Part shown: piece by piece, positions 8,307-32,915 of the stretch
How positions within the stretch are numbered: position 1 is the stretch's first letter
Layout: the number at the start of each line of letters is the position of its first letter
DNA from: Escherichia coli
Lineage (GTDB): Bacteria; Pseudomonadota; Gammaproteobacteria; Enterobacterales; Enterobacteriaceae
Assembly (NCBI RefSeq): GCF_050920415.1
Contig: NZ_CP169309.1
Length of the DNA stretch: 64,000 nucleotides
Strand: one strand, 5' to 3'
Notes under the pieces: model-generated
What the model was told of the DNA's origin: nothing
Seen by the model: only the letters and a program-made list of their open reading frames with translations
Database searches by the model: none
Position numbers and translations under genes: made by a program

Positions 8307-9791
8307 TTAAAATCCGCGCAGGCGCTTAGGTAACATAAGGCCCATTGCCTGAGGCTGGCTTAATTCAGTGATACCCCATACCATTGCGTCGAGGCGGTCC
8401 GGGGATTTTTTAGCGGTAGCTGGCACGTATTCCATCATTTGATTTTCCAGCGTGTACAGGCTGCCTGTGTGGGCCACCCTTCCCTGTGCATACAGTGCCG
8501 ATATTGGCTCGGCGCGGGCGAATTTACCTTTGCTTGCGTGCACCTTAACAATGCGGCCTTTGAATCCGGCATTACGTAGCGTGGCTTCCGCCATCTCCCC
8601 GCCCTGGTTTGTTTCGATAACTATCGCGTCAGCTTCATGGATCTCATAAGCGTTCATTGCGGCTTGCGCCCAGTCGTTAGGAGACATGCGGCCTGAGTAG
8701 TCGCCGTCTACTGAATATTGCGCGTGCTTACCACCACCATAAGCGGAACAAGCCATAATCCCTGTTTCGTCAGACTCTTCCGATGATGTTGTTGCCGGGT
8801 CAATGGCTATCACCGTGCGGATCTTGTCCTGCGTTATCTGCATCCGGTGAGCGGCGGTTATCATCGCTTCAGTCCATAACGCGCCTTCTTCGTCGAATTT
8901 ACGCGGGCGCTGCATGTACTGGGCCTCAAATGACCGTCTGTGCGCCTTCAGTCCGGCTTCATGGCTGTCATTGTGCTTTTTAGGCCATAGCCAGCCGTCC
9001 GGCAGGTTGTGAGCAATAGGGATGGCGAATTCGTTTTCCGGGTACAGATCCCAATAGTCGATGCTATTGTCGATCTTCACTGGCAGGTTAAGGTGATACC
9101 ATTTCTCACCACTGCCACCGCGTAACAGGTAGCCGGACAAATCATCGTAGTGGATGCGCTGCATAATGACGATCACGGGCGTGGTTTGCACTGCCAGACG
9201 TGAAGCCAGCGTGTCGTTATAGTTGGTCTTTACCTTCTCCCGCATCACATCAGAGTAAGCGTCAGCGGGCTTTAATGGGTCGTCGATAATCATCGCGCCG
9301 TTAAAGCCTGGCTCCATGTAACCAGCACGAAAACCCGTAATCTGACCGTGTGACGATGCGGCATATATCCCGCCGCCCTGTTCCGTCCACCACATCGATT
9401 TACTGTTGGCATCGTTGCGGATCTTCATGGGCCATAGCTTTTGGTATTCCTGCGAACAAACCATGCTTCTGACTGTCGATGAATTGAGTAATGCCAGATT
9501 GTCGGAATAGGAAACATGAAGGAAGCGTGTGCGGGGATTTATTGCGAGGGACCGCGCCATCATATTGATGGTTGCGATCATGGTTTTACCGTACCCTGGG
9601 GGGATGTTAATGATGAGGCGGGTAATCTCACCATTAATAACACGCTGTAGCGCATCACGGATGGCTATGTGGTGTCCTGAGATTAACATCTTCGTTCCGT
9701 TTGCTTGCTTGTAGAAGTAACGGTTGAAGAACAGGCCATCGTTTTCACATTTTGACTGAATAACCCTTTCTTTGATGGACAACATAATCAC
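8307..9791 (-). CDS. terminase large subunit
   Basis: 494 aa; Walker A-like PPGYGKT motif near the N-terminus, nuclease-like C-terminal half; follows terS. Confidence 0.6.
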   Translation of the reverse strand: MIMLSIKERVIQSKCENDGLFFNRYFYKQANGTKMLISGHHIAIRDALQRVINGEITRLIINIPPGYGKTMIATINMMARSLAINPRTRFLHVSYSDNLALLNSSTVRSMVCSQEYQKLWPMKIRNDANSKSMWWTEQGGGIYAASSHGQITGFRAGYMEPGFNGAMIIDDPLKPADAYSDVMREKVKTNYNDTLASRLAVQTTPVIVIMQRIHYDDLSGYLLRGGSGEKWYHLNLPVKIDNSIDYWDLYPENEFAIPIAHNLPDGWLWPKKHNDSHEAGLKAHRRSFEAQYMQRPRKFDEEGALWTEAMITAAHRMQITQDKIRTVIAIDPATTSSEESDETGIMACSAYGGGKHAQYSVDGDYSGRMSPNDWAQAAMNAYEIHEADAIVIETNQGGEMAEATLRNAGFKGRIVKVHASKGKFARAEPISALYAQGRVAHTGSLYTLENQMMEYVPATAKKSPDRLDAMVWGITELSQPQAMGLMLPKRLRGF

Positions 9792-10273
9792 ACCTCGTCT
9801 TCTACTTCCTGGACGATGCGGGCGATCTCTTCTTTCGTGACTTCAACCTGGACGGGCGCTTCTTCCTTGTTGCCAATAATCTCTTGTGTGACGCGTTCGC
9901 CATATTTACGCGGTTGCAGTTTTGCCAGTAACCATTTGCGCGTTTCAATCATTAGTTGGTGGCGGCGTAGTTGGTCTTTATCAACGTTTTTAGCATCATC
10001 AGCAATGTCGATGATTTCATCAGCTAATACCTCGAAACCGATCTCCTTCGCGCGCATATACATGTCCGAAAATTCAGGCACATCCCTAAACCACTTAAGA
10101 ATTGTTGAACGTGATGGCATACCAGGCATCTTCGAAATTTTGTTAACGCTCTGACCGTCCGCCACCAGCTCACAAATCTCTAACGCCTTTTCTTCGGTAT
10201 AACCATGCGGACGGCCCACCTTTTTAGCGGCTGGCTTTTTGTCGTCAGCATTTGCCTTTTTAGTGCGGGCCAT
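9788..10273 (-). CDS. terminase small subunit
   Basis: 161 aa, N-terminal HTH-like segment, acidic C-terminus, 4-nt overlap with terL. Confidence 0.5.
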   Translation of the reverse strand: MARTKKANADDKKPAAKKVGRPHGYTEEKALEICELVADGQSVNKISKMPGMPSRSTILKWFRDVPEFSDMYMRAKEIGFEVLADEIIDIADDAKNVDKDQLRRHQLMIETRKWLLAKLQPRKYGERVTQEIIGNKEEAPVQVEVTKEEIARIVQEVEDEV

Positions 10274-10283
10274 ATTTCACCTC

Positions 10284-10367
10284 TCAATATTTATTGATGA
10301 TATATACGCAAGCTACAAAACTTGCACAGTATGTTAATACTTCCAACCAGTCGAATAGCTCTTTCAT
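10284..10367 (-). CDS. small hydrophobic peptide 1 (27 aa, MKELFDWLEVLTYCASFVACVYIINKY)
   Basis: ATG 10367 to TGA 10284; single predicted TM helix; first member of a nine-gene tandem array. Confidence 0.4.
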   Translation of the reverse strand: MKELFDWLEVLTYCASFVACVYIINKY

Positions 10368-10377
10368 TGTTTACCCT

Positions 10378-10449
10378 TTACATAATCGAAAGCGCCCAGG
10401 TAATAAGGACGATAGCCAAAACCATGCAGATAAAATCTGACTCTCTCAT
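10378..10449 (-). CDS. small hydrophobic peptide 2 (23 aa, MRESDFICMVLAIVLITWALSIM)
   Basis: AAGGTGG SD 7 nt upstream of the ATG; single TM helix; 10-nt gap to the next ORF. Confidence 0.45.
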   Translation of the reverse strand: MRESDFICMVLAIVLITWALSIM

Positions 10450-10524
10450 ATTGTCCACCTTGTTTACGCGAAGAAAACAATAACAGCTAACAGCGTGCAT
10501 ATAGCCATAATTAAGAAATCACTA

Positions 10525-10599
10525 TCAGACATTGATAATCACTCCCACGATAATTAACGCTGCTATACATACGAACAATACAGCTTCGATAACATCCAT
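10525..10599 (-). CDS. small hydrophobic peptide 3 (24 aa, MDVIEAVLFVCIAALIIVGVIINV)
   Basis: AGGTGAG SD upstream; single TM helix. Confidence 0.45.
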   Translation of the reverse strand: MDVIEAVLFVCIAALIIVGVIINV

Positions 10600-10607
10600 T
10601 CGCTCAC

Positions 10608-10676
10608 CTATTGAGTTAGCGCGGTCATGGTAAGAACAATCGCAACGATCAGGAAAAAGAAATCAAGCCATTTCAT
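10608..10676 (-). CDS. small hydrophobic peptide 4 (22 aa, MKWLDFFFLIVAIVLTMTALTQ)
   Basis: GGGAG SD; start overlaps the stop of peptide 5 (ATGA); single TM helix. Confidence 0.45.
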   Translation of the reverse strand: MKWLDFFFLIVAIVLTMTALTQ

Positions 10677-10753
10677 TTTTTAAACTCCCGATAAACATCT
10701 ACGGCAATCACTGTAATAACAGCCACCAGCAATAGCATTTCATATGCGTTCAT
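10673..10753 (-). CDS. small hydrophobic peptide 5 (26 aa, MNAYEMLLLVAVITVIAVDVYREFKK)
   Basis: AGGTGAA SD; single TM helix; translationally coupled to peptide 4. Confidence 0.45.
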   Translation of the reverse strand: MNAYEMLLLVAVITVIAVDVYREFKK

Positions 10754-10761
10754 GCTTTCAC

Positions 10762-10836
10762 CTATACAACGTTATTCCACCAGAAATAGATAATGACTGC
10801 GACCAACGACCACCAGATGAGATCGTAAATGTTCAT
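10762..10836 (-). CDS. small hydrophobic peptide 6 (24 aa, MNIYDLIWWSLVAVIIYFWWNNVV)
   Basis: Single TM helix, Trp-rich; 8-nt gap to peptide 5; weak SD. Confidence 0.35.
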   Translation of the reverse strand: MNIYDLIWWSLVAVIIYFWWNNVV

Positions 10837-10848
10837 GATTAAATACCG

Positions 10849-10923
10849 TCAGCTCTCAATGAATATCATGATCGCCAGCCATACAGCGACGCAGGCAGAA
10901 AGAACAATAAGCGGATCAATCAT
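10849..10923 (-). CDS. small hydrophobic peptide 7 (24 aa, MIDPLIVLSACVAVWLAIMIFIES)
   Basis: GGGTGG-like SD; single TM helix. Confidence 0.4.
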   Translation of the reverse strand: MIDPLIVLSACVAVWLAIMIFIES

Positions 10924-10935
10924 ATTGCCACCCAT

Positions 10936-11031
10936 CTAATATTTGCTCATTACGGTTATAAGCACGGCGATAACGAAGCCAACCAGAAATATAGATATAC
11001 CTATTAATCCGGCGATGATGCTTTCGTCCAT
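10936..11031 (-). CDS. small hydrophobic peptide 8 (31 aa, MDESIIAGLIGISIFLVGFVIAVLITVMSKY)
   Basis: Single TM helix; start 2 nt after the stop of peptide 9. Confidence 0.4.
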   Translation of the reverse strand: MDESIIAGLIGISIFLVGFVIAVLITVMSKY

Positions 11032-11033
11032 AA

Positions 11034-11123
11034 CTAATCCTGCATAGACATAACCACCAGAAACAAGCAAAGGATGAATCCAGCCGCCATCCCACCGATG
11101 AAAGTTAGTATTGATGCGATCAT
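11034..11123 (-). CDS. small hydrophobic peptide 9 (29 aa, MIASILTFIGGMAAGFILCLFLVVMSMQD)
   Basis: Starts 2 nt after the stop of the upstream 176-aa gene; GAGG SD; single TM helix. Confidence 0.4.
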   Translation of the reverse strand: MIASILTFIGGMAAGFILCLFLVVMSMQD

Positions 11124-11125
11124 AA

Positions 11126-11656
11126 TCAGCCTCGTTTAAAGCTCATAACACGCGGTACAAGCGCTTCTTTTGCTTTCGGCTTACGTTTGCCTTTCTTTGC
11201 GGGTTTTTCTTCCTTCGGCTGTTCTAATGCCTGCTCGACGACTTCAGCCGCCTGCATTGCCGCTACTTGTGCTTCGTTTGATTCAGCCAGGATAGGGAAA
11301 AATGCATCGAAGATACGGCCTACCATGTAAGCGTAAGTCTCATTCGCCGGGTGAGTTGGATCAGTGATCGCCACGACGCCAACATCACTTAAAACGTGGA
11401 ATGTAGTGTGAGCGCATTCATGTACCAGCGTTCCTAACTCATTGTCGAATACTGCGATCACGTAGAAGTTACCGCCTTTCTCACCAGTGCAAGTAAGCGT
11501 CAATCCTCCAGCCAGTTCGAAATCAGGTTCGATTGGAATTCCTGCCTTTTCGCAAAATTCATAAAACATCTCGCGGGTCGGGCAAAAGAAAACGGTTGTA
11601 TGCTCAAAGAGCGGGATCTTGAATTGAGGCAACTTAATGCCTTTAGCCTTAGCCAT
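11126..11656 (-). CDS. hypothetical protein with HExxH motif (possible SprT-like zinc-metallopeptidase fold), basic C-terminal tail
   Basis: 176 aa; AGGAG SD; motif LVHECAHTTFH; lysine-rich C-terminus. Confidence 0.4.
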   Translation of the reverse strand: MAKAKGIKLPQFKIPLFEHTTVFFCPTREMFYEFCEKAGIPIEPDFELAGGLTLTCTGEKGGNFYVIAVFDNELGTLVHECAHTTFHVLSDVGVVAITDPTHPANETYAYMVGRIFDAFFPILAESNEAQVAAMQAAEVVEQALEQPKEEKPAKKGKRKPKAKEALVPRVMSFKRG

Positions 11657-13596: not shown

Positions 13597-13866
13597 TTAA
13601 CTATCCTCTTTGAATAGCCTAAATTTAATATCGCCAATCTTGCGCCAGTATCCGTGATTAAACATCGCGATGATCTCCGCAGATGTCATAGTTAAAAACG
13701 GTTCATGCCACGGCTCAAGCTGGTGTAATCGCATCATTACGTGTTCACCTTCAAGGCGATAATAAGCGCGTGACGCCAATGACTGATAAACACCGTCATA
13801 TTTATGGTCGCTATTTCCCATTTTTACGCCCCTTAATGGCTCTTTTGATCTGCGTGCGCGTGGCAT
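13597..13866 (-). CDS. hypothetical protein, paralog of the adjacent gene
   Basis: 89-aa ORF, start uncertain; tandem duplicate of 13414-13596. Confidence 0.35.
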   Translation of the reverse strand: MPRARRSKEPLRGVKMGNSDHKYDGVYQSLASRAYYRLEGEHVMMRLHQLEPWHEPFLTMTSAEIIAMFNHGYWRKIGDIKFRLFKEDS

Positions 13867-14011
13867 CGACGAAAGCGATAAACACCGCTACAGGCCAGAA
13901 AGGAATCTCAAGGCCACCACGATCGAGATCATTAGATTTGATAAAACAATACATCAGGATAGCGCCAGCGATATAAAGGAGAAACACAGCAATGATAAGA
14001 CATTCAATCAT
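13811..14011 (-). CDS. small membrane protein
   Basis: 66 aa, two hydrophobic helices; GAGG SD; start overlaps the upstream ORF. Confidence 0.4.
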   Translation of the reverse strand: MIECLIIAVFLLYIAGAILMYCFIKSNDLDRGGLEIPFWPVAVFIAFVDATRTQIKRAIKGRKNGK

Positions 14012-22573: not shown

Positions 22574-23060
22574 CATACCTCTTATCGCGAATAGCTTCTG
22601 ATCTATCAAACTTCACATTAAGCCGATTAGTGGCCTCACCGTTAAACATCACAGTATGGATTGTTTTTCCTGGAATAAGCGACGGATCCGGCCCTGATAA
22701 ATCATCGTAAAGTTTTATCCCTCCGCCAATTGGGAGATCAAAAACAGCTTGTTTCTTCCTTTGTTCTTCCTCACGCTCCGTTAATATTTGTTCAGCTTTT
22801 AGTGCGCTGTAGCTAATCAAATCGATTAACGTATCAGTAGGGTCGCTTCCATTGCTTAAAATGGCCTCTAATCGCGCTTCCTTAAGGCAAATCATTAGAT
22901 CCCATACATCAAGCGGGGTTAAATCTGCTCCCTTCTTAGCGTTGTAAATAGCGGCTATTTTTGGCGCTGATTTTTCCTCTTTTTTGTCGTAGCCGTTTTG
23001 TTTGCCTCTTTGCTCTATTGTTTCCGCTGCAAGTCTTAACAAGTCTGTTGCCTTAGTCAT
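22548..23060 (-). CDS. hypothetical protein
   Basis: Start at MTKATDLL with an AGAGGTG SD; about 170 aa. Confidence 0.35.
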   Translation of the reverse strand: MTKATDLLRLAAETIEQRGKQNGYDKKEEKSAPKIAAIYNAKKGADLTPLDVWDLMICLKEARLEAILSNGSDPTDTLIDLISYSALKAEQILTEREEEQRKKQAVFDLPIGGGIKLYDDLSGPDPSLIPGKTIHTVMFNGEATNRLNVKFDRSEAIRDKRYDPNGKGDN

Positions 23061-23592
23061 TATTCGCACCTCTTGCATATAGCTCTTTACGTGTTATCTG
23101 CGTGAAAATACATTCATGTCTGCACCGTGGATGCCAGATTAAAAACAAGCTCCCCTTATTATTCCCGCTCGCTGGCTTACCAGTAGCGGCATTAATAAAC
23201 GCCAGCCGCCCGCGCGTAATTAATCGGCATTCGTTTGCCGTCTCCACGCCGTTCATAAACCAGCCAACAGAAATGTCGGCTGGCAATAACATTACGCATC
23301 CGATATGGTTTCGGTTGTGTTCAAGCGCCGCTTTATCAACGAATGGCCCCGGATTAGAATATGGTGGATTAAGCCAGACATACTCACCAGGCATTGCCAC
23401 CGCTCCCCACGGATAATGCAACGTGTCCATTTCTTCGGTTATATATCGCGGAACTAATGCGTTTGCTTTGTTTGCCGCCACGTCCGCGACGAATTCGAAT
23501 TCCCGATCCATTCCTCTAAAAACTGGTTTTGGCGTTTGCCATAAGTCTTTTATTTCTTTCGGCGTATGGCTGCCGCCGTAATCATTTTTCAT
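23053..23592 (-). CDS. DNA N6-adenine methyltransferase (phage Dam-like orphan MTase)
   Basis: 179 aa with the catalytic NPPY motif (WLNPPYS) and Dam-family size. Confidence 0.6.
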   Translation of the reverse strand: MKNDYGGSHTPKEIKDLWQTPKPVFRGMDREFEFVADVAANKANALVPRYITEEMDTLHYPWGAVAMPGEYVWLNPPYSNPGPFVDKAALEHNRNHIGCVMLLPADISVGWFMNGVETANECRLITRGRLAFINAATGKPASGNNKGSLFLIWHPRCRHECIFTQITRKELYARGANND

Positions 23593-23601
23593 TACGCCCC
23601 C

Positions 23602-23835
23602 TTAGAAATAATCCTGATCTGTTCCCCAGCGGTTATTCAGATACCCCACCAACCACACAAAACGCTCAATACTGATTAGCGGGGCGACCTTGCGATAATG
23701 CTTGTCGAGTATCAGCCGCGTGGCTTTATCGCTGTAGCCGTTCTTTTCTACCTCCGCTTTGCAGGCCGAAAGCGCGGCGCGTGCGGCAGTCTTTACGGCG
23801 TTAAATTGCGGCTCAGACATATTAAATAAAGCCAT
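23602..23835 (-). CDS. hypothetical protein
   Basis: ORF in the array; start codon uncertain. Confidence 0.3.
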   Translation of the reverse strand: MALFNMSEPQFNAVKTAARAALSACKAEVEKNGYSDKATRLILDKHYRKVAPLISIERFVWLVGYLNNRWGTDQDYF

Positions 23836-23839
23836 AGGA

Positions 23840-24091
23840 TCACCATGTATCATCCCAATCCGGCGCGGCAGTCCAGCAAAAACCAATGAATGCGCTCACA
23901 GCCAATAAAGCGCGGGCTGCAAAAAGAATATTCCCAATGTCGTTAAATTCAGGCAGCGACCACGTAATAAACATAGCCCCAAGCATGACAACACCGATAA
24001 CAGTCAGGGCCGCAAGGAAAACAAAAAGCGTAGCCAAAAGCCACGCCCCCAACCAGTTAAAAAAGCTCTTAAGCATTTTAAACGTCCTCAA
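23840..24091 (-). CDS. small membrane protein
   Basis: 83 aa, two to three hydrophobic helices. Confidence 0.4.
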   Translation of the reverse strand: MRTFKMLKSFFNWLGAWLLATLFVFLAALTVIGVVMLGAMFITWSLPEFNDIGNILFAARALLAVSAFIGFCWTAAPDWDDTW

Positions 24092-24281
24092 TTACCCCGC
24101 CTTTCACGCGTTCTTTAATATCCCATACGTGAGGCTTGCATATTTCTTGATAATAGCGATCCGGCCTGCTGCCGAAATACCATTTACCATCCATATAAAA
24201 ATAAACGCCAGAAAAATTACCAGGTGCGGCCTTTGTTGCTGATTCTGGAATTTTCCATTCTCTGTAATTTTTAAATCGCAT
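24078..24281 (-). CDS. hypothetical protein, paralog of the adjacent gene
   Basis: 67 aa; G(N/G)FSG(V/C)Y(F/Y)Y motif shared with 24271-24465. Confidence 0.35.
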   Translation of the reverse strand: MRFKNYREWKIPESATKAAPGNFSGVYFYMDGKWYFGSRPDRYYQEICKPHVWDIKERVKGGVIEDV

Positions 24282-24465
24282 GTAATGACACCTCCCTGAT
24301 AAGTTTGCTTAACTCAATGTTTATTAATCTGCGGAAATGTTGCTTTCCATCAGCAAAGTGCACCAAGTAAATATCACCAACAATGTTATAGTAGTAACAG
24401 CCGCTAAAACCAATTCCTGCCAATTTAGCGTTATCAGGCAACGTATAACCGCCAACATTTTTCAT
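24271..24465 (-). CDS. hypothetical protein, paralog of the adjacent gene
   Basis: 64 aa; GAGGTGA SD. Confidence 0.35.
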   Translation of the reverse strand: MKNVGGYTLPDNAKLAGIGFSGCYYYNIVGDIYLVHFADGKQHFRRLINIELSKLIREVSLHAI

Positions 24466-24468
24466 ATA

Positions 24469-24561
24469 TCACCTCATATGGTATTCAATAAACCACCTGA
24501 TAAACAGGCATAAGGCAATAAAACCCCAGCAACAGCACATATAAAACAATGTGTCGTCCAT
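24469..24561 (-). CDS. small hydrophobic peptide (30 aa, MDDTLFYMCCCWGFIALCLFIRWFIEYHMR)
   Basis: ATG 3 nt after the upstream stop; TGAGG SD; single TM helix; not in the ORF track. Confidence 0.35.
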   Translation of the reverse strand: MDDTLFYMCCCWGFIALCLFIRWFIEYHMR

Positions 24562-24563
24562 AA

Positions 24564-24782
24564 TTAAGCCTCAATAACACCGTAATCAAACGTGCCTAAA
24601 TACCGTTCGATACTTACAACCTCAATACCATCAATGCACCGTTTCCACACAGACACCTGGCTTTCATTTTCTCTGAAGTGCATATTAGAAAGCACTTCAT
24701 CGGCTGGATAGCCTTTCCCAGCGGCGTAGGCATCGTGACCTACGCCACCTTCTACGCAATAAAGCATGAATTCGCGTTCCAT
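24564..24782 (-). CDS. hypothetical protein
   Basis: 72 aa; GGAGG SD. Confidence 0.4.
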   Translation of the reverse strand: MEREFMLYCVEGGVGHDAYAAGKGYPADEVLSNMHFRENESQVSVWKRCIDGIEVVSIERYLGTFDYGVIEA

Positions 24783-24863
24783 TTTTGCTTCCTCCGCACC
24801 GTAAACCTTTTGATTTCGGATTACAAAACGGATATGCGATTACAATACATAATGTATATTCAT

Positions 24864-24879
24864 GTGATCGGAATCACTC
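24864..24879. promoter_or_regulatory. CRP-like palindrome TGTGA-N6-TCACT
   Basis: TGTGATCGGAATCACT in the intergenic region upstream of gene 24564-24782, flanked by an ATACAT-A-ATGTAT palindrome. Confidence 0.35.
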
Positions 24880-24881
24880 GG

Positions 24882-25501
24882 TTAATGCAGTACACGTTTT
24901 CCCTGTTCAGGCATCGGCTGTGCGTTTTTCCTTGCATCGTTAAGCGTAGCGATAGCTGCCTGTACTCCCAAAACACTAGCGCGCATATCATCGCCAACAA
25001 AATTACCGTAAAGCACAGGAATAAAAGCCTTAATGTTATCTTCTTCGTGTCCTTCCTCAATAAATTTCTGCAACATCTTAACTTCAAATATTTTTTCATC
25101 ATTCCGCGAATAGAATACAAAGAAGCGCTACCCATTCTGTTTTCATCAATAGGGAAGATAACAGCACTACCAAAAGCCATAGGATCAACATCTTCAGGCA
25201 CTGGAACGCGTCCGAATTCTTCCTCCATGCGTTTTACAAAAGAAAGGCAGAATACATAACGCGCCACCGTTGTTTTTTCTTCCAGGCTTAAAGACACGTA
25301 ATCGCGGATTGACGCATCCATCATAATATCAACAATATGTAGCGCCAGGTTTAAATCACCGTCATACACGCCAGCATCCATATCTTTTAATACTTCGTGA
25401 TAATCCTTAGTTACCACTTCGTGAAAGCTCGCGTCTTCTGTGTAGCGAGTGATTAACATGCCTTCGCTGCCGAGTGAATAAGCTGTTTTGATGTTGTTCA
25501 T
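24882..25501 (-). CDS. hypothetical protein with an apparent -1 frameshift at an A6 run (programmed shift or pseudogene)
   Basis: N-terminal ~135 aa in one frame; a protein-like C-terminal 64-aa ORF in the -1 frame ends just before the intergenic region; frames join near A6 at 25091-25096. Confidence 0.35.
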
Positions 25502-25514
25502 GATATTTATCCTT

Positions 25515-25847
25515 TTATAGTGGGTGATGCCATTTCATTTCTGTTTCTGAATTAAACGGGTTTCCTTCGCTTGAAAGGAATAAATCACGCTCCCGTTTCA
25601 GTTCTTCCGGGCTTATTTCTATTTCATCAATCTGACCGAACGATCCCGGCATCATTCTTTTTAAATCAGATAGCGGACGCATAAGGCCGCAACCGCGTAA
25701 CAGCATATCGACCGCGAATTGTCTACGTCCGGCGGCGTCATTAAAGCGCCGTGCCCAGGGCACAACCACGATCCGGCGTTCGAATTCGATAAATAGTGAT
25801 AGCTTGTTTGTTTCGCTATCATATGCTTTATGGAATTTAATTTTCAT
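25515..25847 (-). CDS. hypothetical protein
   Basis: 110-aa ORF. Confidence 0.35.
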   Translation of the reverse strand: MKIKFHKAYDSETNKLSLFIEFERRIVVVPWARRFNDAAGRRQFAVDMLLRGCGLMRPLSDLKRMMPGSFGQIDEIEISPEELKRERDLFLSSEGNPFNSETEMKWHHPL

Positions 25848-26028
25848 TTAACACCTCGACGTATTGCTCAAGATGCCATTTACCAACTTCATCCATGTTT
25901 TCGTCGTATATAATGACCTCTCCGCCTTGCCTGAATCTGAAAGCAGTAGCTGTAAATTCACGGCCCCACCACGCCTTTAAGCGCTCCCCGCCTTTCAGGT
26001 GTTTAACCTTTACTTCTTTTATAGCCAT
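25837..26028 (-). CDS. hypothetical protein
   Basis: 63-aa ORF. Confidence 0.35.
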   Translation of the reverse strand: MAIKEVKVKHLKGGERLKAWWGREFTATAFRFRQGGEVIIYDENMDEVGKWHLEQYVEVLNEN

Positions 26029-26291
26029 ACGCCAAACATCCCATTCAGTCCGGCGAACAATTTCCGCCAGTGGTTTTCAGCATAAGCCCGGAACGGCTTA
26101 ACGCGAACATTGCGGGCCTTCAGTTCAATCTTGTCGAAGAAACGCGGCTCTATAATTGTTCCGTCCAGATATTTAACCAGGATCGGGCGCTCAAGATCGT
26201 TATAAGTCTTGTTCAGCACGACCAGGCCAGGGTCGCTACGATATTCTGGCAAAATAACAAGATCGCCCTCTTTTGCATTCCAAGTAACCAT
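26019..26291 (-). CDS. hypothetical protein
   Basis: ATG at 26291 overlaps the stop of the upstream small peptide ORF. Confidence 0.35.
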   Translation of the reverse strand: MVTWNAKEGDLVILPEYRSDPGLVVLNKTYNDLERPILVKYLDGTIIEPRFFDKIELKARNVRVKPFRAYAENHWRKLFAGLNGMFGVWL

Positions 26292-26410
26292 CACATCACC
26301 CCCTTACCAATAAAAGCCAATACCGCAGCAAGTGCTCCACAAAATACAACCGTAAACAGGAAACAAATAACGCAAAACGCGACATTCACAATGTCCTTAC
26401 CGACTTTCAT
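26291..26410 (-). CDS. small hydrophobic peptide (39 aa)
   Basis: MKVGKDIVNVAFCVICFLFTVVFCGALAAVLAFIGKGVM; GAGG SD; not in the ORF track. Confidence 0.35.
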   Translation of the reverse strand: MKVGKDIVNVAFCVICFLFTVVFCGALAAVLAFIGKGVM

Positions 26411-26418
26411 GATTAACC

Positions 26419-26532
26419 TCACATATTAGTAATCAGTTTTATGATCGCTACCGTGATATAAAGAGAAGCAGCAAGATAAGCAACAGCTATTGCAACTCCA
26501 GCGGATAACGCTGCTATTTTGATTATGTTCAT
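26419..26532 (-). CDS. small hydrophobic peptide (37 aa)
   Basis: MNIIKIAALSAGVAIAVAYLAASLYITVAIIKLITNM; GGAGG SD; ATGA overlap with the upstream gene. Confidence 0.4.
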   Translation of the reverse strand: MNIIKIAALSAGVAIAVAYLAASLYITVAIIKLITNM

Positions 26533-26780
26533 TTTTCAGCCTCCGCAATAAATCTATCCAACCATTTATTATTCGCCAGGCGTTCGGCATCTTCGCCAAA
26601 TGATTTACGATCGCTTAATTCCTGTCGAGTAGGGAAAGGCCATTTATCAACCCAGCCCGCAGACGTTTCGAATTCATAGTTGCCGCCGCCGAAATCAACA
26701 AATACATCACTATCATCAAGGCTTTCAGCAGTTCTCTGAAAACCTCTACCGTTATTTTCGCTTAATGTTGTAGCTGTCAT
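26529..26780 (-). CDS. hypothetical protein
   Basis: About 83 aa starting MTATTLSENN; table start is probably too long. Confidence 0.3.
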   Translation of the reverse strand: MTATTLSENNGRGFQRTAESLDDSDVFVDFGGGNYEFETSAGWVDKWPFPTRQELSDRKSFGEDAERLANNKWLDRFIAEAEK

Positions 26781-26793
26781 GATTAACACCTCA

Positions 26794-27072
26794 TTAATCG
26801 TTAATAACCTGGCCCATACGCCCGCGATATTTGCGCATACGTGGATCGACATATTCAGGCCAATGCATATCCGGTTTTCTTTGCAGTGGGTAAAAACTTG
26901 CCTGCCAGTTGTCGAACCATATTTGCTTTGCGTACAGGTCACTAAATCTTTTTGCCATCCGATCCGCTGCCGTGCCGCATAAAAAAAGCCCGCGATCGAT
27001 TTGATCACGGGCTTCTTTTAATACTTGCTCTTTTGTTCGTGGTTGCGGTGGCGGTTTTAGATAATCACTCAT
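26794..27072 (-). CDS. hypothetical protein
   Basis: About 92 aa starting MSDYLKPPPQ; the upstream extension overlaps ssb. Confidence 0.3.
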   Translation of the reverse strand: MSDYLKPPPQPRTKEQVLKEARDQIDRGLFLCGTAADRMAKRFSDLYAKQIWFDNWQASFYPLQRKPDMHWPEYVDPRMRKYRGRMGQVIND

Positions 27073-27088
27073 CGCTAACGCATTGATT

Positions 27089-27508
27089 CTAAAAAGGAAT
27101 ATCGTCGTCGAAGTCCATCGGAGGCGGATTATTCCCGTTATTATTCTGCTGCTGCGGCGGCGCTTTCTGCTGCTGTCCTTGCTGCTGGCCTTGTTGGTTA
27201 ACATTCATGAATTCAAATTCGTTAACCGCCACTTCTACCGCAGTCCCCTTCGTGCCGTCGTTCCGGTCATATTGCCGAACATCCAGGCGACCGCTTACCA
27301 CTATTTTTCCACCCTTGCGGATATGTGGCGCTAATTTTTCCGCACGCTCGCCAAATACCAGACAAGTGATCCACATTACCCGCTTATTATCACCGTAGCC
27401 ATTCGTTACAGCTAACGGGAAGCTACCGATCGCTTTACCGCTTTGCGTGTAGCGGACTTCCATGTCATTTCCGATATTCCCGCCCAGCGTAATTGAATTT
27501 AAGCTCAT
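27089..27508 (-). CDS. ssb: single-stranded DNA-binding protein
   Basis: 139 aa; OB-fold region, Gln/Gly/Pro-rich linker and acidic C-terminal tail MDFDDDIPF. Confidence 0.75.
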   Translation of the reverse strand: MSLNSITLGGNIGNDMEVRYTQSGKAIGSFPLAVTNGYGDNKRVMWITCLVFGERAEKLAPHIRKGGKIVVSGRLDVRQYDRNDGTKGTAVEVAVNEFEFMNVNQQGQQQGQQQKAPPQQQNNNGNNPPPMDFDDDIPF

Positions 27509-28149
27509 TAACCCATCTCCCCGTTAAGCTCTGATTTTCTGATCTGGTATACGTCGCTCGCTTTCTGTCGTTGCTCTGAGTTTTCAGGTAATAACTTCCA
27601 GCATTTAGCAAAAATATCTTTAAGTGCTTTTTCGTCCTGCGCTTTCGCTGCCGCATCACAGAAACGTGCTAATACTTCATCAGGATTTGGCGGCGCTTTC
27701 TGCTGCTGCGGTTGTTGTTTTGGTGGGTTTTTCTGTTGTCGCGGCTGCTGGCCTGTCTGCTTCGCGTAAGCATCAGTATCAGGATCGCGAGCATCATCTA
27801 TACAGAATAAACCGTTCAAAGCATATTTCCGCGCGTAACTTGATGTTGCTCCTGTTAGCTGGCTGGCGTCCATACCCTTCTTGCTTTCTTCCTCCCTGGC
27901 ATAAGCAGTTACCGCTATTACGTCTTCACCGTCGCTTAGCGTCGCCGTAGCTTTCACATAATAGCGATTGCCGATCAGGACAATTTCATCACTAACAGTC
28001 AGCGTGATATTTTGAAGCAGTGGTTTAACCGCCTCTAAAATATCCTCCGCCGACCTGTAATTATACCCGCCAAAATTATTACGCTGATTTTTCGGCGCGT
28101 TCAGCGTTTGCTGAATCGTCCATAGTTTTTTATGTAACTCTGTTTTCAC
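27508..28149 (-). CDS. Erf-family single-strand annealing protein
   Basis: 213 aa; N-terminal LNAPKNQ...FGGYNYRSAEDILEAVKPLL resembles P22 Erf; followed by ssb. Confidence 0.55.
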   Translation of the reverse strand: MKTELHKKLWTIQQTLNAPKNQRNNFGGYNYRSAEDILEAVKPLLQNITLTVSDEIVLIGNRYYVKATATLSDGEDVIAVTAYAREEESKKGMDASQLTGATSSYARKYALNGLFCIDDARDPDTDAYAKQTGQQPRQQKNPPKQQPQQQKAPPNPDEVLARFCDAAAKAQDEKALKDIFAKCWKLLPENSEQRQKASDVYQIRKSELNGEMG

Positions 28150-28298
28150 CCTTTAATCTCCTTCGCTGTTAACACTACGTATAAGGCTTTATTCGCGGCG
28201 CTCCACATTTCGGCATCGTGAAGCATTTCCGCTACCGCCAGTTTGAATTGAAGCGCCCGAATAACCATAATGTCACCTCCGGATGTTTACATTTTGTA

Positions 28299-28589
28299 TT
28301 AATGGTAGCGGACTTTATCCAGGGGTTTTTCCCCTAAATGGCGTGGTTGCGTTGCGTGGTAGTAGCTGCCGCTTTCATTTTCCGTATACCATTTTACTGG
28401 TCCTTTGCGACGTTCTTTAATGCTATTTGGTTTGCATCTTTCCTCGTTTGCAAATCGAATAGCTTTATCCACATTGTCTGTTTTATTGATTGCAGGTGAT
28501 GATTTTCTTTCGTTTTCTCTTTTTATCCTTCTGCGTTCCCTGGCATTCAGTTTACTGTCACATTTGCCATACATAATTGTAACGCTCAT
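28299..28589 (-). CDS. N-like transcription antitermination protein
   Basis: 96 aa with an arginine-rich motif NARERRRIKRENERK near the N-terminus; first gene after pL; boxA/boxB nut site in its leader. Confidence 0.5.
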   Translation of the reverse strand: MSVTIMYGKCDSKLNARERRRIKRENERKSSPAINKTDNVDKAIRFANEERCKPNSIKERRKGPVKWYTENESGSYYHATQPRHLGEKPLDKVRYH

Positions 28590-28644
28590 AATCTGATCTC
28601 CGTATATCCTTGATGAAACTTAATAAAAATCATCTTCGTTAATT

Positions 28645-28682
28645 GCCGCACTTCCAGCGGCTGACCAGATTGTTAATGAGCG
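28645..28682 (-). promoter_or_regulatory. nutL-like site (boxA CGCTCATTAACAA + boxB hairpin)
   Basis: Minus strand CGCTCATTAACAA, then TCTGGTCA, then GCCGC-TGGAAGT-GCGGC, ~60 nt upstream of the N-like ATG. Confidence 0.5.
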
Positions 28683-28936
28683 GCTTAACATCTTTCAACT
28701 AATCCCGCAATCATCGCCGTTCCCGGCGTGACCTTGCTCACTCCAAGCAAGCTGACTCGTCGCCTTGCGTGCGGTTTCGTGGGGGATGTAACGCTTTAAA
28801 CACCCCATGCGCCTTGTTATCAGTGCCGCTTTCGGTCCCCCATCGGGGAGTTACTCCACGGTTGACAAGGTGTTAAGCCTGATTTTTAAAGTGCCAGGAA
28901 GTTGCTTTTGTTACCTGCGCCCTTCCTTTGACTCGC

Positions 28937-28965
28937 AATATACGCCCCGTAAAACACCGAGTCAA
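28937..28965 (-). promoter_or_regulatory. pL-like sigma-70 promoter
   Basis: Minus strand TTGACT, 17-bp spacer, TATATT; two CATTTTGTAT motif copies immediately upstream. Confidence 0.45.
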
Positions 28966-29057
28966 TCCATTTTGTATACTTTTTTAAAACATTTTGTATG
29001 CTATTGATATTTAAGCAATAAATAACGCTTCCTGTTTACGTTTTGGTGTTTTCCGGG

Positions 29058-29082
29058 CAAAGAAAAGCCGCCATCCGGCGGC
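29058..29082 (-). terminator. rho-independent terminator downstream of the repressor gene
   Basis: Minus strand GCCGCC-GGAT-GGCGGC hairpin followed by TTTTCTTT, 7 nt after the CI stop. Confidence 0.6.
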
Positions 29083-29088
29083 TAATGT

Positions 29089-29736
29089 TTATGGCAGGTT
29101 TACGATCTTCGCATCAACCACCACACCTATGATTTTTGATTCTGGATTCATAGGGATTGGCGGATACAGAGGGTTGAGCGAACGTAAAAGCCTTTGACCT
29201 CCATCAATAATCAACTGTTTAAACGTCGGTATCTGCCCTTCCTCAAGCTGGGCTATAACCAGTTTGCCGTCAATAGCTGGCGCGTGCGGATCGACAAGTA
29301 TCATCGTCCCCGCTGGTATACTCAATCCTTGCGGCGCGTTCATTGATTCGCCTTTAGCTACCAGCCAATAACTATCATCTGAACAAATAACGCTAGTCGT
29401 AACGTGTGGTAATGTTGATCGCCTTGTATCATCCATATTGTTTACTGTGTCCTTCCAGTCAACAACCGGGTAACTGCCTAAATCACGCTGCGGCGCTCCC
29501 GGTAACGTGTTAGAAACAGAATCATCAATGACCATTCCATCATGTGTAACAGTGAATTGCCGACGACCAAGCGCCCGCATAATCCGCGCAATATCTTCAA
29601 GATTTGGCTCGCGGCGACCGTTAAGCCAGTGTGACAGGCCGCCTTTAGTTATCCCCATGAGATCCGCGAGTGAATCCTGGCTCATGCCTTGCGCTCGCAT
29701 GAGCTGCTTTGCTAAGTCATACCATTTTGTTTTCAT
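29089..29736 (-). CDS. CI-type prophage repressor (HTH + S24 LexA-like peptidase domain)
   Basis: 215 aa; N-terminal XRE-type HTH (QDSLADLMGITKGGLSHWLNGRR), C-terminal AKGESM serine and downstream Lys of S24 self-cleaving repressors. Confidence 0.75.
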   Translation of the reverse strand: MKTKWYDLAKQLMRAQGMSQDSLADLMGITKGGLSHWLNGRREPNLEDIARIMRALGRRQFTVTHDGMVIDDSVSNTLPGAPQRDLGSYPVVDWKDTVNNMDDTRRSTLPHVTTSVICSDDSYWLVAKGESMNAPQGLSIPAGTMILVDPHAPAIDGKLVIAQLEEGQIPTFKQLIIDGGQRLLRSLNPLYPPIPMNPESKIIGVVVDAKIVNLP

Positions 29737-29795
29737 GTCGCTACCCTATAACCTCAAAAAGTTTGATACAAGTCACAAAATGTATTTTTCAAGTC

Positions 29796-29823
29796 TTGAC
29801 CTAAAAACGCCATTCTGTAAACT
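29796..29823 (+). promoter_or_regulatory. pR-like sigma-70 promoter overlapping an operator-like motif
   Basis: TTGACC, 16-bp spacer, TAAACT; GCCATTCTGTAAACTT overlaps the spacer and -10. Confidence 0.45.
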
Positions 29824-29900
29824 TGCAGACAAGGTAGGGCCATAGTTGCAAAGACGCAAGAAAAAAGATAACGGAATAGCACAAAAAGGCGCATACCTTA

Positions 29901-29933
29901 TGCTCTTTAATAATCTGGTGTCGCTGCGAAGCG
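29901..29933 (+). promoter_or_regulatory. nutR-like site (boxA TGCTCTTTAATAA + boxB hairpin)
   Basis: TGCTCTTTAATAA, then TCTGGTGT, then CGCT-GCGAA-AGCG in the pR leader. Confidence 0.5.
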
Positions 29934-30041
29934 AAAAACAAATATCACGCAACGGCGGGATCTGTTAAGCGGTCAATCACTGCTACCTAATACTAATGGG
30001 ATACCCGCCCGCGCGTTCACTCTAACATAGGAGAAAACACA

Positions 30042-30296
30042 ATGAGTATGCACATGATGAATGAAGTATGGAAATTAAAACTTAACAGCCCTATTCAAAA
30101 ACTTGTCTTAATGGCGATGGCTGAAAAGGCAGATAACAAAGGACGGGTACATGTATCACGCAAAGAAGTAGCCGCAATGTGTGAACTTCCTGTTTATACG
30201 GTACATGATGCCTTCGCCGCGTTAATGGATAAAGGATTTGTTTGTCGTCTTGATGCATTCAGTGATGTCTATGTAGTGATGTTGCCGGAGGAATGA
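30042..30296 (+). CDS. winged-HTH DNA-binding protein (Cro-position, replication-associated HTH)
   Basis: 84 aa; first gene of the rightward operon with an AGGAG SD; directly precedes the replication initiator gene. Confidence 0.4.
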   Translation: MSMHMMNEVWKLKLNSPIQKLVLMAMAEKADNKGRVHVSRKEVAAMCELPVYTVHDAFAALMDKGFVCRLDAFSDVYVVMLPEE

Positions 30297-30299
30297 TCC

Positions 30300-31400
30300 A
30301 TGAAGTGGTTTAAGCATGATAGCGATGCGAACCGCGATGAAAAGCTCCAAAACGTTTTGCTTGATTATGGTCTGGAAGGATACGGGCTTTACTGGTATTG
30401 CATCGAGTTAATAGCTTATGAAGTAGATCAACATAATCTGACATTCGAACTAAAACACGATGCGAGAATTATTGCCCGTAACGTCGGATCAACTCCGAAA
30501 CGTGTAGAAGAAATGATGAGATACTTCATCGAAGTTGGCTTGTTCGATTGCTCGCATGGCGTTGTAAGATGCCTGTCGTTAGCAAAAAGACTTGATCAAT
30601 CAATGGCTTCATCAAAAAGCGAATTTAGGGAAGCAATTAAAAGGCTAAACGTCAAAAAAAATAAAAAGTTAGATAATCCTTTAGTGGAAGTAAATAATTC
30701 ACCAGATACAGAAAAAGAAAAAGAAAAACCATGGCACAACCATGATGCAGCCATGGCACAACCATGTCATAGCCATGGATTAGAAGTAGAAGTAGAAGAA
30801 GAAATAGAAAAAGATATATACACTTCGTGTATTAGCGAAAATGGACAAAAAACGGTCAATCAGGACGGTGTAAGCGAAGCTGCCTTGCGTTGCCTGGCTT
30901 TCTACAACGAAAAGGCAGGATGCAAGTGTCGTGATACTAAGCCATTCATCGAACTACTGACAGAAACAAAAACACGTAAGGCATATACGGAGGAAGAGAT
31001 CACATTAGTAATTGAGTGGGCTTTAACCCAATGGCGTAGCCGTGGTGGAGTACCTAAGCCTATCAACATTTGCCGGGTAACTAAGTTTGATGGGTATCTG
31101 GCTGATGCTGAACAATGGCGCAAGTTATCAGCTACTGTAAACGCTGCCGACGTGGTGGGAGAATTTAACAGCACGTTTGACGGCCTGTTACCACCTGCCG
31201 AACTGGATCGGGATCTTGAACGCAAGATCTATGCGTTCACTGACTACCTGAAAGACAAAAGTATTAACGGCTTTGTCGCCTACTTCGAAACGTTCAAAAA
31301 CACGGCTTCAGATTTTTACTTCGGCAATGGCTTCACTGCGACACTTGATTTTCTGCTTAAACCAAAAACGCTACGTGATACACGCGCTGGCGTTCTTTGA
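30300..31400 (+). CDS. phage replication initiation / replisome organiser-like protein
   Basis: 366 aa; N-terminal MKWFKHDSDANRDEKL segment typical of phage replisome organisers; acidic repeat-containing middle; position upstream of the helicase. Confidence 0.4.
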   Translation: MKWFKHDSDANRDEKLQNVLLDYGLEGYGLYWYCIELIAYEVDQHNLTFELKHDARIIARNVGSTPKRVEEMMRYFIEVGLFDCSHGVVRCLSLAKRLDQSMASSKSEFREAIKRLNVKKNKKLDNPLVEVNNSPDTEKEKEKPWHNHDAAMAQPCHSHGLEVEVEEEIEKDIYTSCISENGQKTVNQDGVSEAALRCLAFYNEKAGCKCRDTKPFIELLTETKTRKAYTEEEITLVIEWALTQWRSRGGVPKPINICRVTKFDGYLADAEQWRKLSATVNAADVVGEFNSTFDGLLPPAELDRDLERKIYAFTDYLKDKSINGFVAYFETFKNTASDFYFGNGFTATLDFLLKPKTLRDTRAGVL

Positions 31401-31533
31401 CCAACCACGATCCGCAAAAATCCAAAATTACCCATAAAACAACCTCACCAGCGAGCTAAATAGCATATGCTGCTACACTTGCTTACCTTTTTGCGATTAG
31501 CTCGTTATAGAGCGTTACAGAGAGGATTTTAAA

Positions 31534-31635
31534 ATGGACGGTAAACACGTTTTCGCCCTGGCCTTTGCCATCGCTGCGGCAATCGCTGTTAACGTCGCTT
31601 TGTTCGGCGGTTTGTACCTTCTCGTTAATCCATAA
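31534..31635 (+). CDS. small hydrophobic peptide (33 aa, MDGKHVFALAFAIAAAIAVNVALFGGLYLLVNP)
   Basis: GAGAGGA SD 7 nt upstream; single TM helix; in the intergenic region after the initiator gene. Confidence 0.4.
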   Translation: MDGKHVFALAFAIAAAIAVNVALFGGLYLLVNP

Positions 31636-31796
31636 CCTACCTACCAGTCTGTAAATCGAAAATTAGCCACCTGATAGCGCCTCTGGCGCAAAAAAGACAC
31701 TGCACCCTTACAAGTGGGTTACGCGGTGGAATTTTGCGTTGTAGCGCGTTTTACGGAAAATAAATATACATTCTGTAAACATGAGGAAGTAACATT

Positions 31797-32915
31797 ATGT
31801 CGCAAAGAAAGATCAGCGATGAGGAATTAATCGCTGAGTACAAGAAGGGGAAAACTTACAAGCAAATAGCCGAAGAATATGGAATGGCAAAACGCAACGT
31901 CGAACGACTGGGCGCGCGGTTGGCGAAACGCGGTTTAATATCCACGCGTCGCGCGCCGGGTTTTGGCGTCAATGGTGAGTCTTTGCTCGTTGATAAAGAT
32001 GGCAATGTAATCATGCGCTGGATTAAAACAGCCCGTGACCGTGATGAAATGGAAAGGCTAATGCAAGCGGCTTGCGATGCTTTCACGGAAGAAATACCCC
32101 GAGCGGAGGCCGTGCCAGTGCCGGAAATTGATTTTCAAAAAAGTCTGGCCCTTTATCCGGTATTCGATTTGCATATAGGGGCGCTTGCTCATAAAGCTGA
32201 GTGCGGCGAAAGCTACGACACCGGGATCGCTGAACGCGTGCTAAATGATTTCTTTGACTACGCGGTAGGCGCTGCGCCAATGTCTGAAAAGGCTGTTTTG
32301 CTTCTCGGCGGTGATGTGCTTCACACTGACGGCCTGTTACCAGTGACGCCATCAAGTAATCACGTTTTAGATTGTGATTCACGCTACGCAAAACTGGTTT
32401 ATGTGGCGATCCGGTCGGTCCGGCGTGCGGTCGGGAAGATGTTACTAAATCATAAGGATGTCGAGATCCAGGTATTATCCGGTAATCACGACCAATCAGG
32501 TATGATCTGGCTACGTGCTGCGCTTGCGGCTTTTTACGAAGATGAGCCGCGTGTGACTGTTGACGTGTCACCTGCCATTGTCCACCACACACAGTACGGC
32601 AAAACATTCCTTGCTTACCACCACGGGCACACTATCAAAAAGCCAGAAAATTTACTTTCTGCCTGCGTTTCTGACTGGCGGGAGGATTTCGGCAAGTCGT
32701 CGGCGGTTTACGCTCATTGCGGGCACTGGCATCATCAACGGCTGATTGAATCATCGTTAGGCGTTGTCGAGTATCACGGCACATTAGCTGGCAAAGACGC
32801 TTATTCAACGAATGGCGGCTGGCGGTCGCGGAGGCTGGCGGCGGTAATAATTTACAGTCCTGATCACGGGGAGATCGGGCGCTTTGTTTATTACCCTGAA
32901 TATTCCATTTTGTAA
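31797..32915 (+). CDS. HTH-domain / calcineurin-like metallophosphoesterase fusion protein
   Basis: N-terminal HTH (KTYKQIAEEYGMAKRNVERL); C-terminal phosphoesterase motifs DLH, GGDVLH, GNHD, GHWHH; GAGGAAG SD. Confidence 0.5.
   Translation: MSQRKISDEELIAEYKKGKTYKQIAEEYGMAKRNVERLGARLAKRGLISTRRAPGFGVNGESLLVDKDGNVIMRWIKTARDRDEMERLMQAACDAFTEEIPRAEAVPVPEIDFQKSLALYPVFDLHIGALAHKAECGESYDTGIAERVLNDFFDYAVGAAPMSEKAVLLLGGDVLHTDGLLPVTPSSNHVLDCDSRYAKLVYVAIRSVRRAVGKMLLNHKDVEIQVLSGNHDQSGMIWLRAALAAFYEDEPRVTVDVSPAIVHHTQYGKTFLAYHHGHTIKKPENLLSACVSDWREDFGKSSAVYAHCGHWHHQRLIESSLGVVEYHGTLAGKDAYSTNGGWRSRRLAAVIIYSPDHGEIGRFVYYPEYSIL

Follow-up and report, generated by a model that had tools for sequence, protein, structure and literature searches.

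Four short early genes of an mEp021-like coliphage are candidates for single-pass inner-membrane microproteins

Of all parts of a phage genome, small hydrophobic open reading frames (ORFs) are the ones that standard pipelines are most prone to omit. Here, we report an analysis of four such ORFs, denoted A–D, in a 64,000-nucleotide (nt) stretch of Escherichia coli DNA (contig NZ_CP169309.1 of assembly GCF_050920415.1; hereafter the window), where they lie among the early genes of an mEp021-like temperate phage or prophage. Judging by how their sequences vary among related phages, all four are almost certainly genuine protein-coding genes under purifying selection. The explanation that we consider best overall, with a probability of roughly 0.6, is that they encode early single-pass inner-membrane microproteins that bind membrane partners. 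The parts of this explanation differ in strength: judged from the sequences, insertion into the membrane is highly probable and early expression is probable, and action through a binding partner is a tentative suggestion.

The mechanism that we propose is as follows. A–D would be inner-membrane microproteins of 30–39 residues belonging to an mEp021-like (mEpimmI) temperate coliphage. C, B and A would be translated by coupling within a leftward early operon that also carries Gp17, erf, ssb, an abc2-like gene and accessory genes, and D, on the rightward replication transcript, would rely on a strong ribosome-binding site of its own. Expression of all four would fall early in lytic growth, alongside that of recombination and replication functions, and would be repressed in the lysogen. 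After insertion into the membrane, each peptide may contact a host or phage membrane protein through sequence-specific helix–helix packing, and the partner would be modulated during host takeover, much as bacterial small membrane proteins regulate transporters, kinases or proteases. The mechanism is constrained by the placement of the genes in repressor-controlled early operons, by their co-production with recombination and replication functions and by selection on specific residues. The reading frames, ribosome-binding sites, coupling, conservation, purifying selection and hydrophobicity are read directly from the DNA; from these features we infer translation, membrane insertion, expression timing and partner binding.

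ORF A (24469–24561, minus strand) encodes 30 amino acids (aa), MDDTLFYMCCCWGFIALCLFIRWFIEYHMR, with a single hydrophobic helix, an acidic N terminus and a basic C-terminal flank. ORF C (26419–26532, minus strand; 37 aa), MNIIKIAALSAGVAIAVAYLAASLYITVAIIKLITNM, has one helix with a lysine close to both ends. ORF B (26291–26410, minus strand), MKVGKDIVNVAFCVICFLFTVVFCGALAAVLAFIGKGVM, is 39 aa long counted from its ATG and has one helix with a basic N-terminal flank; its longest form starts at a GTG at 26422. ORF D (31534–31635, plus strand; 33 aa), MDGKHVFALAFAIAAAIAVNVALFGGLYLLVNP, has one Ala-rich helix. An earlier note, made from the letters of this DNA, had proposed these four ORFs, and its coordinates and lengths are all confirmed in the sequence. 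The good ribosome-binding sites that it described are likewise present, as a GAGG-, GGAGG- or AGGA-type Shine–Dalgarno (SD) motif 7 nt before each ATG. The GAGG of A (24569–24572, minus strand) occurs in 20 of the 21 loci of the A1 allele type described below and reads AAGG in LSU61 (locus L003). The GAGG of B (26417–26420, minus strand) overlaps the stop codon of C, and this TGAGG is conserved in most loci. C has a GGAGG (26540–26544, minus strand) within a GCGGAGG that is present in all loci, and the GAGAGGA of D (31520–31526, plus strand) is kept in nearly all relatives, with the variants GAGGGGA (L007) and GAGGGAGGA (L045).

Three of the four ORFs are packed tightly against other genes. 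The ATG of C overlaps the stop of the preceding 74-aa gene (ATGA, 26529–26532), the ATG of B lies 8 nt past the stop of C, and the TGA of B overlaps the ATG of the next gene, of 90 aa (TGATG). A starts 2 nt past the stop of its preceding gene (24564–24566) and ends 3 nt short of the next ATG, and the gene that follows has its ribosome-binding site in the final codons of A (AGGTGA). D follows a replication gene after 133 nt and precedes the next gene by 161 nt, alone in a 400-nt intergenic stretch. From this layout, A, B and C are translationally coupled within the N-like (Gp17) early operon and D is uncoupled, and the description of the ORFs in the earlier note as tightly coupled applies to A, B and C, not to D.

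ORFs of this kind are not expected by chance. A scan for ATG-started ORFs of 20–60 aa with both an SD motif and a hydrophobic window returned four in the region 23000–32000, whereas 300 dinucleotide-preserving shuffles averaged 0.04 and never reached four; across the whole window there were 10, against 0.5 in shuffles. A chance origin of the four ORFs is excluded. The best 19-residue window has a mean Kyte–Doolittle value of 1.88 in A, 2.78 in B, 2.36 in C and 2.55 in D. Each peptide contains one hydrophobic segment and, at 30–39 aa, has no space for a second helix, in agreement with the single-helix character claimed for each. The flanking charges suggest that B, C and D are oriented N-in and that A is oriented N-out/C-in, with its basic RWFIEYHMR tail in the cytoplasm. 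A lipoprotein or signal-peptide reading was rejected: on inspection by eye, no lipobox precedes any cysteine and no mature domain follows the helix.

To describe conservation, we compared loci from 7 phages, 16 E. coli prophages and 2 further assemblies, which share 72–99% nucleotide identity across these ORFs, and added contigs from IMG/VR (28 for D, 39 for C and B). Loss of the frames in related phages had been named beforehand as the outcome that would count against them, and the outcome was the reverse: wherever a relative includes the region, the frames are open (all four in the 25 annotated or assembly loci, and D or C and B in the IMG/VR contigs). The ATG is always retained and the SD motif almost always, and length differs by at most 4 codons. 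A is intact in 26/26 relatives and occurs as two allele types, A1 (30 aa) and A2 (29 aa), which are 41–48% identical. B (38–40 aa) is intact in all relatives, C (35–39 aa) in all annotated relatives and in 39/39 IMG/VR loci, and D is 33 aa long in 22/22 annotated loci and 28/28 IMG/VR loci. The spacing from C to B is 7–9 nt in relatives, with two exceptions: L058, where it is 2 nt and C is 2 codons longer, and L019, where a further gene intervenes. In the latter, E. coli STEC308 (L019 3531–4244), a KilA-N domain gene lies between C and B, and both ORFs are intact with their own ribosome-binding sites.

The substitutions that separate these loci fall in the pattern of translated genes. Variable columns are concentrated at third codon positions (first/second/third positions: A 6/6/15, B 14/8/23, C 11/10/28, D 8/5/23), and the pooled pairwise ratio of nonsynonymous to synonymous change (dN/dS) is 0.15–0.16 for A (within A1), 0.31 for B (within B1), 0.17 for C (within C1) and 0.11 for D. 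The same calculation on accepted neighbours (Dam, SSB, Erf, the gp17-like gene, cI and others) gives 0.04–0.27, and the shifted sense frames of A–D give 0.7–2.7 and contain stops in nearly all cases. Insertions and deletions likewise avoid the four ORFs. Low ratios also hold between allele types (A1/A2 0.18–0.26, B1/B2 0.15, C1/C2 0.10–0.18), which are deeply diverged: the proportion of synonymous differences (pS) is near saturation at 0.58–0.81 (A1/A2 0.64–0.70), with a proportion of nonsynonymous differences of 0.15–0.30. The pS of the small ORFs (0.27–0.42) equals that of the flanking genes, and the constraint is therefore on the protein and not on the DNA or RNA. The proposal that these are further single-helix peptide genes is supported, since dN/dS of 0.11–0.31 is what real genes show here.

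The constraint is also specific to particular residues: many positions keep their amino acid although between two and five codons are used for it. C is nearly invariant across its C-terminal half, SLYITVAI(I/V)KLIT. In B, C13 and a small-residue face, G25-A26-x-A28-A29, are invariant in both allele types; D has an invariant mid-helix Asn20 and a Gly-Gly pair in the helix; and A has a CWG...LF-RW-IE pattern common to A1 and A2, in which RW(F/V)IE is fixed. Small-residue faces and a mid-membrane Asn are usual marks of specific helix–helix association. As read from these alignments, the residue constraint in A–D exceeds what generic hydrophobicity would need.

These patterns bear on the idea that translation of A–D serves solely to hold ribosomes on the transcript, for coupling to the next gene or as protection from Rho, with the peptides as by-products. 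The coupling is real (the ATGA and TGATG overlaps), SD motifs sit inside the ends of preceding ORFs (AGGTGA of A, TGAGG of C), and T-rich DNA easily yields hydrophobic sequence, as reported for intergenic small ORFs (PMC11188072). A by-product, however, would not be expected to show dN/dS values like those of neighbouring genes, residues that are invariant despite codon turnover, or a length held within 4 codons across alleles that are nearly saturated at synonymous sites. D, moreover, is coupled to nothing, and B and C both remain intact where the KilA-N gene separates them. We regard this idea as highly improbable.

The same data address the view that the stretches are non-coding on this strand and that terminators, nut sites, an origin or similar elements at the RNA or DNA level, or genes encoded on the opposite strand, explain their conservation. 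In favour of this view, a predicted terminator is annotated within ORF C in the mEp021 record (L004 3800–3816), a 119-aa ORF (26070–26429, plus strand) overlaps B on the opposite strand, one antisense frame through D is open in 21/21 sequences, and the flanks of D are conserved non-coding DNA. Third-position periodicity combined with low dN/dS is, however, found only in the proposed frames, and antisense frames score worse, behaving like the mirror frames of accepted genes: the antisense frame that shares third positions gives a low dN/dS for every real gene tested, always weaker than that of the sense frame (0.15 sense versus 0.38 antisense for A, 0.11 versus 0.20 for D). The open antisense frame through D holds no ORF of 20 aa or more with a start codon within D, and the only overlap is that of a 21-aa GTG ORF (31483–31548) with the first 15 nt of D. 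The hairpin at 26499–26513 (CAGCGGATAACGCTG) in C carries its T-rich tail on the plus strand alone, opposite to the operon, and could at most stop antisense transcription. Rfam gave no match within A–D, and none of the four contains a strong terminator on the sense strand. The 119-aa ORF, which starts at a GTG and runs opposite B and the 90-aa gene, is in our reading a mirror-frame 'shadow': every accepted gene tested, the 90-aa gene among them, has a low dN/dS in the antisense frame that shares its third positions. The frame-specific substitution pattern argues that the non-coding or antisense view is largely refuted, and we give it scarcely any credence.

The surroundings of D need separate description. 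Its flanks vary at 62–66% of columns with no codon periodicity and many indels, whereas D itself varies at 45% of columns (12/10/23 by codon position) with no indel from ATG to stop. The majority identity of the non-coding flanks (31401–31533 and 31636–31750) is about equal to that of D. Downstream of D, a hairpin, GCGCC-TCT-GGCGC, at about 31677–31689 is followed by an A-run and not by a T-run. The conserved flanks might contain a promoter, an origin or a nut-like element. A little downstream of D lies a swap slot (about 31760–31796) in which relatives L010–L023 carry Ant, Rha, KilAC, BRO, a zinc-ribbon protein or DUF559; it is empty in the window.

The case for early expression comes from the position of the genes in the phage. 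The region 23000–32000 is of the Nus-dependent, non-lambdoid 'mEpimmI' coliphage type. It is 86–89% identical to mEp010, mEp515, mEp021, mEp554, mEp044 and mEp013 and 92.6% identical to phage MagusPhagus, and matching prophages are found in 34 of 5,426 complete E. coli genomes, at 85–93% identity. Gene order in the window is that of the mEpimmI group, whose Gp17 antitermination and nut sites have been described and which is said to be common in the human gut (PMC11893012). A LexA-like cI repressor lies at 29089–29736 (minus strand). To its left, the minus strand carries the homologue of gp17, an N-like antiterminator (28299–28589), followed by erf, ssb, the abc2-like gene and then many small accessory genes in succession, with a Dam methylase last. 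To its right, the plus strand carries a helix-turn-helix gene, a Lin1244/Lin1753-type replication gene (30300–31400) and more replication genes. The best sigma-70-like match upstream of the gp17-like gene (TTGACT-17-TATATT, 10/12; 28937–28965, minus strand) is the probable early promoter of the operon that carries C, B and A.

If the peptides are membrane proteins made early, they might act without a specific partner. A–D could be membrane-damaging peptides of the type I toxin, viroporin or YohP kind, which would oligomerize and lower the proton-motive force, with host shutdown or the blocking of superinfecting phages as their purpose. Their size and hydrophobicity resemble those of Hok, Ldr, TisB, DinQ and YohP, and they have features suited to self-association (the Asn and GG pair of D, the small-residue faces in B and C). 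The depolarization caused by YohP and the type I toxins have been reviewed (PMC12648545; bioRxiv 10.1101/2025.05.06.652344). Yet strong SD motifs and coupling in long operons mean that the peptides would be made alongside essential early functions, and the charged amphipathic tails typical of TisB or Hok are absent. The repressed, uncoupled translation that marks type I toxins is not what we see, as all four ORFs have canonical SDs and A–C overlap or adjoin flanking genes. No known type I toxin family was matched by A–D in Pfam or NCBIfam. No Rfam antitoxin or small-RNA family was found inside A–D at E ≤ 1, and promoter-like matches in the region, on both strands together, are at shuffle level (17 versus 17.7), although a promoter consensus scan of this kind cannot exclude an antisense RNA. 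Membrane damage is in our judgement an unlikely role.

A second alternative to host modulation concerns at least A, which may anchor a neighbouring phage protein in the membrane or serve as its small subunit. Assemblies from at least two independent sequencing runs (loci L055 and L056, 1501–1791) encode a 96-aa protein in which A is naturally fused in frame to the product of the downstream 64-aa gene (24271–24465, minus strand), the TGA of A (24466–24471 in the window, with the adjoining codon) having become TGG. The predicted C-in orientation of A would place the fused domain in the cytoplasm, and the stop of A, one codon and the next ATG lie in a single frame in 20 of 21 A1-type loci. Against this, one A allele is found alongside each of the three divergent types of the 64-aa gene, with no co-variation, the in-frame layout is missing in A2-type loci and in mEp013, two loci have TAA, and the fusion could be a tolerated accident; nothing comparable exists for B, C or D. 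An anchor role appears very unlikely. Programmed readthrough of the TGA from A into the next gene was considered and rejected, since the layout is not conserved (A2-type loci, mEp013) and the stop is TAA in two loci.

Database comparisons place A–D in this phage group. Among 1.84 billion representative proteins, a profile of A recovered nothing beyond the A2 allele of the same group, and tblastn of B against 50,697 phage records found 7 mEp-like phages, all of this group. tblastn of C against the phage collection returned nothing, known relatives included, probably because the query was masked as low-complexity, and a concatenate of C and B returned nothing from the protein collection even though C is in it, which makes this negative uninformative. 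IMG/VR contigs carrying C and D are mostly 50–57 kb, a size typical of the mEpimmI group. No relatives of A–D were found outside this group, with searches for C limited by length and masking. For exclusion or defence families, the best E-values were 0.2 (PHROG) and 0.099 (PADLOC).

The ORFs have been called before. PHANOTATE/Pharokka annotations of relatives name all four 'hypothetical protein' (for example, mEp010_37, _30, _29 and _14), and the exact peptides are deposited under the same name on 55–456 contigs; with close variants included, such entries stand on tens to hundreds of E. coli and phage contigs. B is annotated by RefSeq through its annotation pipeline, PGAP, in a few genomes (WP_000868625.1); among the prophage copies examined, PGAP omits C and D in every one and B in almost all. 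A is absent from the PGAP copies checked and is listed in older GenBank records. Gene calls for A–D are thus not new, and the argument for their reality is. The mEpimmI paper and its supplements do not mention small hydrophobic peptides (PMC11893012).

Several observations weigh against the reading of A–D as early, partner-binding membrane proteins. PGAP and the original mEp021 annotation leave their stretches empty, and proteomics on this phage group covers virion proteins only (PMC11893012). No significant match to A–D was found in Pfam, PHROG, NCBIfam or PADLOC scans, nothing points to a partner or a phenotype, and the neighbouring genes are all without assigned function. The topology comes from a simple positive-inside charge count over very short flanks. 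With regard to selection, the antisense frame sharing third positions also has a low dN/dS, and the conserved non-coding surroundings of D could share part of its nucleotide conservation.

The four peptides do not form one family. In Smith–Waterman alignments of 171 pairs scored against shuffles, the best pair across the families of A–D or with a peptide of the array described below reached a z of about 3.5 (with A and its A2 allele scoring up to 3.6), whereas true alleles in the same test reached 9–17. By this measure, A–D are four separate families, unrelated to one another and to the array peptides; a kinship with the array, to which the earlier note had looked, is not borne out (best z about 3.5 among the 171 pairs).

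The array itself (10284–11123, minus strand) comprises ten consecutive hydrophobic ORFs of 22–31 aa just upstream of the terminase small subunit gene (9788–10273). It had been described as a nine-gene array giving, with A–D, at least 13 peptides: the count of nine is one too few, and the total holds and is, if anything, low. Conservation of the array among the mEp phages is only partial, and a segment of roughly 110 nt (about 11029–11137), which includes the 29-aa ORF at 11034–11123, is about 77% identical to rV5-like lytic phages. The window also encodes two small membrane proteins with two predicted helices each, one of 66 aa (13811–14011, minus strand) and one of 79–83 aa (23840–24091, minus strand). 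PGAP names the latter 'cell division protein FtsK' in several prophages, a name for which we found no Pfam or NCBIfam support. Likewise, the name 'toxin-antitoxin system toxin subunit', which PGAP gives in many prophages to the 90-aa gene after B (26019–26291, minus strand), has no Pfam or NCBIfam match behind it; this gene falls only in a PHROG of unknown function.

The neighbourhood of A varies among relatives. In genomes with the A2 allele, A2 is immediately preceded by a further hydrophobic ORF of 32 aa (MWLIDLILACWLIVLVGFVGYFAWEEGKHNGR), except in L019 (1771–1860), where the scan found A2 alone. L025 and L026 (3586–4177) encode this ORF and A2 as a single fused protein of 58 aa, and four A2-allele genomes have an additional 60-aa membrane ORF further upstream; in L022, the small ORFs of the A2 region lie at 1766–1943 and 2176–2358. 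The A position appears, from these arrangements, to gain and lose small membrane genes.

A broader version of our proposal, which we consider doubtful, is that a fixed set of at least four unrelated early microproteins, together with the variable array, serves to switch host inner-membrane proteins, each acting on a different one. If true, this would be a compact and hitherto unstudied phage toolkit of membrane-protein inhibitors that could be used to probe the membrane machinery of E. coli. Short of that, A–D are good candidates for wet-lab work on early manipulation of the host membrane by temperate phages, because they are strictly kept, evolve as ordinary genes do and are constrained at specific residues.

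Comparison with known small membrane proteins helps to place A–D. Close parallels in form are the bacterial regulators AcrZ, MgtS, MgrB, KdpF, CydX and PmrR (reviewed in PMC12648545). Like these, A–D have at most 50 residues, a single (in A–D, predicted) transmembrane helix and no enzymatic domain, are conserved on particular helix faces and have been missed by standard annotation. They have no sequence similarity to these regulators, which are chromosomal, stress-regulated and often encoded beside the gene of their partner, whereas A–D are phage genes in early lytic operons. The type I toxins (Hok, Ldr, Ibs, TisB, ShoB, DinQ and ZorO) share with A–D their length, one hydrophobic helix and a location on mobile elements; some of these toxin peptides are carried on prophages. 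Type I toxins, however, are encoded as separate loci, are paired with an antisense RNA and are kept under tight translational repression, whereas A–D have strong SDs and, for A–C, operon coupling, and they lack homology to these toxins, a match to an antitoxin RNA and an excess of promoter-like sites.

Phages themselves encode short membrane proteins of assigned function. T4 Imm, HK97 gp15 and lambda SieB are small inner-membrane exclusion proteins, and phiX174 E and LysM of phage M achieve single-gene lysis by blocking MraY or MurJ; proteins of this sort act by binding to or blocking membrane machinery of the host. A–D resemble these in being short and phage-encoded, and LysM, at 37 aa, is in the same size class, but no PHROG or Pfam similarity connects them. 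HK97 gp15 and lambda SieB are transcribed in the lysogen, whereas A–D sit in repressor-controlled early operons, and single-gene lysis proteins belong to tiny phages without a lysis cassette. Families of small genes have reportedly been predicted in phage genomes (Fremin et al., 2022). In the intergenic microproteome of Enterobacteriaceae (PMC11188072), as here, short and mostly hydrophobic ORFs show conservation and purifying selection; that study and the one by Fremin et al. are catalogue-level surveys, and they likewise conclude that the genes are real, with function unassigned. Set beside these systems, A–D would not be a new kind of system and would add four clean cases to the known class of small phage membrane proteins.

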